Source of the DNA: Escherichia coli
Lineage (GTDB): Bacteria; Pseudomonadota; Gammaproteobacteria; Enterobacterales; Enterobacteriaceae
Assembly (NCBI RefSeq): GCF_003334385.1
Contig: NZ_QOWN01000199.1
Length of the DNA: 335 bases
Direction: 5' to 3' (one strand)
A program made the position numbers and the translations under genes. Positions within the stretch are counted from its first letter, which is position 1. Each line of letters opens with the position of its first letter. This document shows, in pieces, positions 1-335 of the stretch. The notes beneath the pieces were generated by a model, which searched no databases, had not been told where the DNA came from, and saw only the letters and a list, made by a program, of their open reading frames with translations.

Positions 1-335
1 ACCACCTGCTCAATCGTACAACTGAAATCACTGTACCTGGCGTTATCTGTGACGCTCCACTCCCGGCACACCACCCTCACCGTCCGGTTATGTTTCGGTG
101 GTCGCCACAAAAAGGCACGGTAACCACCATGCCACGATAAAAATTCATCCAGCCAGCGCCGGGTTGGTTCATCCGTCACCCGGAACACCGCCTGAAACGT
201 CTTCAGTCTGGCATTAAGTCCCGTCGGTCGGCGCTGTTCATAACCGTCACCAAACCGAACCCTCACCACCGACGGTTTCTCACTCACCTGCATCCCTTCA
301 CGCGGGACCAGATGCAGCGTTTTTATCTCAGCCAC
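1..335 (-). CDS. M: Lambda-like phage minor tail protein M (tail-tip assembly protein, gpM homologue). 3' end truncated by the window edge at position 1, with a stop expected a few nt beyond. Start probably GTG at 333-335 or just upstream of the window.
   Basis: The reverse-complement frame beginning at plus-strand 335 is open for 111 consecutive codons, while the other two minus frames stop within 13 nt and the plus frames stop at 23-25, 121-123 and 136-138. The translation aligns along its whole length with lambda gpM as I recall it (MKTFRWKVKPGMDVASVPSVRKVRFGDGYSQRAPAGLNANLKTY...HGGWKSFLWTPPYEWRQIKVTCAKW...EFEQVVN), with about 40-45% identity by eye and one small indel. Shared motifs are GM.V..PSV..VRFGDGY.QR.P.GLNA.LKT, FL..HGG...FLW.PP, C..WS and FS...EQV. 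The plus strand is C-rich, so the coding strand is G/purine-rich, as is typical of coding sequence. Confidence 0.93.
   Translation of the reverse strand, partial: MAEIKTLHLVPREGMQVSEKPSVVRVRFGDGYEQRRPTGLNARLKTFQAVFRVTDEPTRRWLDEFLSWHGGYRAFLWRPPKHNRTVRVVCREWSVTDNARYSDFSCTIEQV
323..335 (-). CDS. Extreme 3' terminus (last 2-4 codons plus stop) of the upstream tail gene, presumably the tape-measure protein (lambda H equivalent). Frame is ambiguous: the stop is either TAA at plus 323-325 or TGA at plus 328-330.
   Basis: Inference only. The gpM homology begins at codon 4 of the open frame, and lambda's ATG position is occupied by ATA here, so M probably starts at the GTG at 333-335. Both alternative minus-strand frames terminate immediately (g-TGG-CTG-AGA-TAA and gt-GGC-TGA), which is what a tightly packed upstream gene ending here would look like. 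In lambda, as I recall, the H stop overlaps the M start (ATGA). Too short to verify by composition or homology. Confidence 0.25.

Follow-up and report, generated by a model that had tools for sequence, protein, structure and literature searches.

A GTG codon as the predicted start of a lambda gpM-type tail gene in Escherichia coli prophages, overlapping the tape-measure gene by eight nucleotides

Introduction

Where does translation of a phage tail gene begin when the ATG that opens its lambda counterpart is not there? The question is raised by a 335-nt stretch of Escherichia coli DNA (the window, by which the whole stretch analysed is meant), whose minus strand opens with GTG GCT GAG ATA AAA ACG CTG. 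A preliminary description, drawn up from the letters of the window alone, had placed an ATA opposite the initiator of lambda gpM and had proposed the GTG three codons upstream as the probable start, overlapping the end of a tape-measure gene by about 8 or 13 nt. The evidence set out below indicates that translation of M very probably starts at this GTG (335-333), which would be read as fMet and directed by a GGAGGA Shine-Dalgarno (SD) sequence. The features on which the argument turns are the following.

1..335, minus strand: M coding sequence, covering codons 1-111 and 2 nt more out of 113 codons in all; the gene ends 7 nt past the window
333..335, minus strand: GTG, predicted start codon of the gpM-like gene; first codon after an in-frame TGA, SD 7 nt upstream, annotated, clade-invariant
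328..330, minus strand: TGA stop of the tail tape-measure gene (lambda H homologue), ending a 1080-codon open ORF
328..335, minus strand: 8-nt start/stop overlap GTGGCTGA (-8 spacing, NTGNNTGA type), read from the sequence
324..326, minus strand: ATA (Ile4), aligned with lambda gpM Met1 (phmmer, MAFFT)
323..325, minus strand: TAA in the third (+1) frame, not a gene end
291..293, minus strand: ATG, codon 15, a conserved internal Met equivalent to lambda M12 and very probably not a start

A gpM-type gene in lambdoid prophages

The minus strand of the window holds the first 335 of the 342 nt of a gene for a gpM-type minor (distal) tail protein of a lambdoid E. coli prophage, and the frame opened by GTG runs through all 111 codons of the window with no stop. 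Homology to lambda, claimed in the preliminary description, is borne out by the translation. Its residues 6-112 align with positions 2-108 of the 108-position Pfam model PF05939 (Phage_min_tail; E = 2.7e-28), PHROG 14 matches as 'minor tail protein' (E = 3.4e-36), and a phmmer search of solved structures pairs residues 5-113 with 2-109 of the lambda 'Tail tip protein M' 8iyk_M (E = 8.1e-26); an NCBIfam search with the same translation returned no matching model. Gene order agrees with this: the tail cluster of E. coli EC2 (locus L001) reads major tail subunit, chaperones G/T, tape measure, M, L, C40 peptidase (K-like), I-like tail assembly protein and J, and in the annotation of L001 M is preceded by the tape measure (H) and followed by 'minor tail protein L'. 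Judged by homology and synteny, the gene in the window is thus a lambda gpM-type distal tail protein gene of a lambdoid E. coli prophage. Its lambda counterpart is the distal tail protein gpM, whose hexameric ring joins the tail tube to the tip, with 109 of 109 residues resolved in the virion (PMC10721106); such a ring between tail tube and tip hub, known for lambda gpM, would be expected of the prophage protein by homology. At the far end of the gene the stop codon of M shares 1 nt with the start codon of L (TGATG, L001 4340-4344, 7-9 nt beyond window position 1 on the minus strand); M accordingly has a -8 junction at its upstream end and a -1 junction at its downstream end.

Prophages in several E. 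coli chromosomes contain the sequence of the window at 100% identity. Places that match it number 2820, spread over 1175 of 5426 complete E. coli genomes (634 of these at at least 99%), and 91 phage records, mostly of Stx-converting phages, match as well. Six of the matching places in complete genomes lie on plasmids. The M gene is highly multi-copy, a single genome having as many as 7 copies, chiefly in STEC/EHEC strains with many lambdoid prophages, and the same junction arrangement recurs in isolated phages (vB_EcoS-569R3, Stx-converting phages and Salmonella SPF_0923). Might the missing ATG then simply mean that M is decaying in a cryptic prophage and no longer functions? The lack of an ATG at the lambda position and the presence of several copies in prophage-rich strains would suit such a reading, but the ORF is intact, the gene recurs throughout the many genomes just counted, often nearly unchanged, the isolated phages carry the identical arrangement, and both the SD and the GTG are conserved; decay has next to no probability on these grounds.

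The start codon

In the flanking sequence (L001 3981-4015: ...cgacgtgacGGAGGAatgcTGA GTG GCT GAG ATA AAA...), an in-frame TGA (L001 3998-4000, just outside the window) stands immediately 5' of the GTG, and no start farther upstream is therefore possible. This disposes of the more distant in-frame ATG that the preliminary description had allowed for, while the ribosome-binding site that it had placed beyond the window, 5-10 nt before the GTG, is indeed present as GGAGGA at L001 3988-3993, 7 nt upstream. The computed duplex with the 3' end of 16S rRNA amounts to -9.5 kcal/mol at the GTG versus -2.2 kcal/mol at the ATG of codon 15, and when the 8.3-kb locus is scanned on both strands, just 1.5% of its 17-nt windows reach the former value. 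From the GTG to codon 15 the frame contains no further ATG, GTG or TTG (predicted M residues 2-14 are AEIKTLHLVPREG), and GTG is the only available start for M. The same codon is annotated as the start by NCBI PGAP (WP_000807940.1, CDS L001 4001-4342) and in an independent GenBank phage record, ON470597, as that of a 'tail tip assembly protein M'. A lone GTG would be trivial; its position directly after a stop, the SD energy and its conservation across lineages at 48-100% amino acid identity are not.

The first in-frame ATG is codon 15 (window 293-291), and its Met is invariant in relatives, including all sequences of an 8-sequence MAFFT alignment. Could it be the real start, leaving the 14 upstream codons untranslated? 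Besides having the weak anti-SD pairing given above, this ATG follows its G-rich run with no spacer, and the equivalent Met of lambda (M12) is internal to a protein that is resolved in the virion from end to end (PMC10721106). Homology to lambda residues 2-11 extends over residues 5-14, and the match to the Pfam model runs from residue 6; with similarity beginning at residues 5-6, translation must begin upstream of codon 5. Moreover, one sub-lineage (L099) has, ahead of this Met, an indel whose length is divisible by 3. Initiation at codon 15 is therefore highly improbable, and the GTG remains the start to be explained.

What became of the lambda start position? The phmmer alignment pairs K5 of the query with K2 of lambda, which puts I4 (ATA) opposite lambda Met1, and MAFFT agrees, so the placement in the preliminary description holds. 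The closest relatives with a short N-terminus, two M genes on IMG/VR contigs (L224 and L216, 68-71% amino acid identity), start exactly at the window's ATA codon: L224 reads ATG AAA ACC TTT CAT TGG and L216 GTG AAA ACC TTT CAT TGG, where the window has ATA AAA ACG CTG CAT CTG. Their codons 2-6 (AAA ACC TTT CAT ...) thus match window codons 5-9, and L216, like the window, uses GTG; both nonetheless start at the lambda position, 25 codons before the conserved GDGY motif and right after an in-frame H TAA (GGAGGATAA-GTG/ATG) without any overlap, whereas the window has ATA at their start codon and its own start three codons earlier. In other members of the window's clade, whose starts lie 28 codons before GDGY, the equivalent codon is CCT or ACG and therefore has no start-like character left. 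The ATA is probably a relic of an ancestral start position that now serves as an ordinary Ile codon and, as far as the alignments go, replacement of the lambda ATG by ATA is a fair evolutionary summary, the start having shifted three codons upstream relative to lambda.

ATA is a very poor initiator in E. coli. This speaks against the idea that M is initiated non-canonically at the ancestral ATA (codon 4), or at the CTG of codon 7, even though the ATA stands exactly where lambda, L224 (ATG) and L216 (GTG) begin. In addition, the distance to the SD would be 16 nt and so fall outside the usual range, a canonical and well-spaced GTG lies 9 nt upstream in the same frame, and the CCT or ACG of the clade relatives betrays no conservation of a near-cognate codon. 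Non-canonical initiation is accordingly extremely unlikely, and the canonical GTG is the start assumed from here on.

In the related group L216-L224 (around 390-405 of each locus), H and M lie in one frame and are split by a single TAA (gcgGGAGGATAA-GTG/ATG); stop-codon readthrough there would give an H-M fusion.

The overlap with the tape-measure gene

The tape-measure CDS is annotated at L001 766-4008, and its TGA (L001 4006-4008), in the +2 frame relative to the GTG, ends the 1080-codon ORF; the upstream gene is hence the tape measure, as the preliminary description had supposed, and far from ending well before position 335 it overlaps the GTG. The positions given there for the stops of the other two minus frames (TAA at 323-325, TGA at 328-330) are exact in the sequence. 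As for the length of the overlap, only the first of the two values holds. The +1 frame that ends at the TAA (325-323) is closed by several stops just upstream (L001 3984, 3945, 3897 and 3888), so that no long ORF ends at this TAA; an overlap of 13 nt is ruled out and the overlap is 8 nt.

The GTG begins 5 nt before the first base of the tape-measure TGA, which is the geometry of the -8 overlap pairs (NTGNNTGA) as these are described in Huber et al. 2023 (PMC10666635) and Brown & Wade 2025 (PMC12548453), namely NTG, two bases, TGA. The pairs described there are, like the one in the window, co-directional genes for parts of one complex, and the descriptions point to no structural difference between them and the window. 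At the level of sequence, the GTG also has the marks of a true initiation codon, as this class has it, with nothing available upstream, a properly spaced SD and conservation.

The SD itself is embedded in the tape-measure gene, where it occupies the Asp-Gly-Gly codons (GAC GGA GGA) of a conserved C-terminal H motif, RDGG(M/L)LSG. Lineages whose M start lies at least 18 nt farther downstream encode the same H glycines as GGT/GGC and have their SD elsewhere. On this codon comparison, the choice of GGA versus GGT/GGC is a signature, written in synonymous codons, of selection for the ribosome-binding site.

How does this compare with lambda? The lambda H/M junction (J02459 13100; GGAGGTggacgATGA) involves the same genes in the same order and orientation, with homologous proteins (E = 8e-26), and there too the SD lies inside C-terminal, Gly-rich H codons and start and stop overlap. 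The differences are that lambda uses ATG with a 4-nt overlap (ATGA), whereas the window uses GTG three codons farther upstream with an 8-nt overlap, and that the lambda SD corresponds to Ser-Gly-Gly of an H tail longer by three residues, whereas that of the window corresponds to the conserved Asp-Gly-Gly and H ends after ...LSG. Across the family the motif RDGG(L/M)x(S) is conserved, and the residues that follow it vary, with a length of 0 to 4 (L001 3985-4008 compared with lambda L003 172-204): GGGR in lambda, G in the window's H, and AYR or VYR elsewhere. In the model of the lambda virion, gpH is built for residues 818-849 (PMC10721106); counted from lambda ...RDGGLFSGGGR (853 aa), residue 849 is the Ser that ends RDGGLFS. 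The unmodelled, variable tail of H would thus fit a stretch that is free to change as the M initiation signals move.

Junction variants among relatives

A first scan of viral contigs yielded 80 near-identical contigs (94-99% identity) with an invariant junction. Because invariance among near-identical contigs says little, 12 divergent phage records were added, together with two viral-contig scans seeded with divergent members of the clade. With GDGY, a conserved motif, as the common anchor, the 254 loci yielded 71 unique junctions. By default, M in this family starts at an ATG that precedes the G of GDGY by 25 codons, and H and M lie within -8 to +10 nt of each other in nearly all family members. 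The spacings other than -8 were as follows.

-4 nt (ATGA): lambda, phage 21
-1 nt (TAATG or TGATG): mEp460, L227, L232, L241
0 nt (in-frame TAA, then the start directly): L216, L224
+5 nt (gap): L225
+10 nt (gap): L228

The window's clade has its GTG start at -28 codons from GDGY, except for the sub-lineage L099, which starts at -26 after an in-frame deletion. The types that accompany the window in this clade are listed with their N-termini.

606R7 type, 66% amino acid identity: VPEPEVFNWIPREGM
Salmonella SPF_0923 type, 48% amino acid identity: VANTEEFHWLPEDGM
L099 type, 6-nt in-frame deletion: VAEEFHWLPEDGM

Every member of the clade (window, 606R7, SPF_0923 and L099 types) keeps the GTG within GTGNCTRA, that is, with the H stop, TGA or TAA, 5 nt downstream, and has GG(A/G)GGA exactly 7 nt upstream. 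Downstream of the GTG the codons vary from member to member while the GTG, the 8-nt overlap and the SD stay. The comparison of gpM N-termini among related phages that the preliminary description had suggested thus comes out in favour of the GTG. The -8 side comprises only about four independent lineages, the other variants being close relatives, and the comparison is therefore qualitative rather than statistical. An in-frame ATG that lies within the SD of the 606R7-type relatives, 5 codons before the GTG, was considered as a start and rejected: the anti-SD energy there comes to +0.9 kcal/mol, and the sister variants L181 and L193 lack this ATG.

What do these findings add? The GTG start is already present in RefSeq and GenBank, and the gene family, its synteny and the -8 type of overlap are all known; the addition made here is only modest, namely a series of junction variants put on record and the synonymous-codon signature that goes with the embedded SD. 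The RefSeq start (WP_000807940.1) gains support for a tail gene found in more than 1000 E. coli genomes, including those of Stx-converting phages, which has little import beyond correct annotation. The locus may also serve as an example of textbook type, in which an SD is kept by the choice of synonymous codons in the preceding gene and the start is shifted by three codons relative to lambda.

Coupled or independent initiation

How would ribosomes reach the GTG? The GGAGGA 7 nt upstream would direct initiation there and, in addition, ribosomes that end translation of the tape measure at the TGA may re-initiate at the GTG, which begins 5 nt behind that stop, so that termination-reinitiation coupling would add to the SD-driven de novo initiation. 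We put the chance that translational coupling of M with the tape-measure gene contributes functionally at roughly even. In its favour we count the strict conservation of the -8 spacing within the clade, where exact GTGNCTRA spacing is held down to 48% identity as the neighbouring codons change, and the confinement of H and M to distances of -8 to +10 nt in nearly all family members. The -8 spacing (NTGNNTGA) is moreover, in the account given by PMC12548453, which cites PMC10666635, the third specifically enriched spacing in prokaryotic genomes, after -4 and -1.

These same observations bear against the alternative that M is initiated at the GTG by its independent SD only, the 8-nt overlap being a matter of compact packing with no functional coupling. 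That alternative nevertheless has much to recommend it. The SD is strong (-9.5 kcal/mol) and well spaced, and no local RNA structure has to be unfolded: the region L001 3951-4050 folds with an MFE of -30.8 kcal/mol versus a shuffle mean of -31.7 kcal/mol (z = 0.29), leaving the SD and the GTG unoccluded. With a fold no better than that of shuffled sequences, the 'unfolding' type of coupling is unsupported. Work summarised in PMC12548453 indicates that the efficiency of coupling falls as overlaps exceed -4 nt, and gaps between H and M are tolerated in two relatives, of 5 nt in L225 and of 10 nt in L228. Finally, lambda M is a hexamer and lambda H a trimer (PMC10721106), so that strict 1:1 coupling is not required. 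Taken together, independent initiation alone is a serious contender whose probability falls somewhat short of one half. In two further searches of the region, Rfam returned only a sub-threshold chance match (E = 0.81) and a scan of the H-M interval detected no sigma-70-like promoter.

Could the position of the start have been adjusted in evolution? One conceivable, though rather unlikely, scenario is that the H/M junction of lambda-like tails is a naturally 'sliding' initiation site, at which the unstructured H end beyond the conserved ...RDGGxxS would be free to grow or shrink, the SD would be rewritten into whatever glycine codons stand 7 nt upstream, and the M start would migrate (from ATG to GTG to ATA, with an upstream GTG captured). 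Were this true, the ratio in which different phages produce H and M (3:6) would be tuned by the spacings -8, -4, -1, 0, +5 and +10, and the family would provide a natural series for measuring overlap length against the efficiency of coupling.

Two further features of these loci deserve mention. Within M, a terminator-like hairpin occupies window 133-114 on the minus strand and is followed by a T-run to 104 (L001 4203-4232 in all, the hairpin being L001 4203-4222); it consists of GGCATGGTGGTTACCGTGCC followed by TTTTTGTGG, has an 8-bp stem of about -16 kcal/mol and encodes WHGGYRAFLW. Near-identical variants of the window share it, the 606R7, SPF_0923 and lambda homologues lack it, and it is probably a side effect of the codons for WHGGYRAFLW. 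The other concerns L222 (IMGVR_UViG_2811995012_000002, about 380-460), where what precedes the M homologue bears no relation to the C-terminus of the tape measure, the frame is interrupted by a stop 22 codons ahead of GDGY and the sole start is the ATG equivalent to Met15; M of L222 looks like an N-terminally truncated or recombinant gene.
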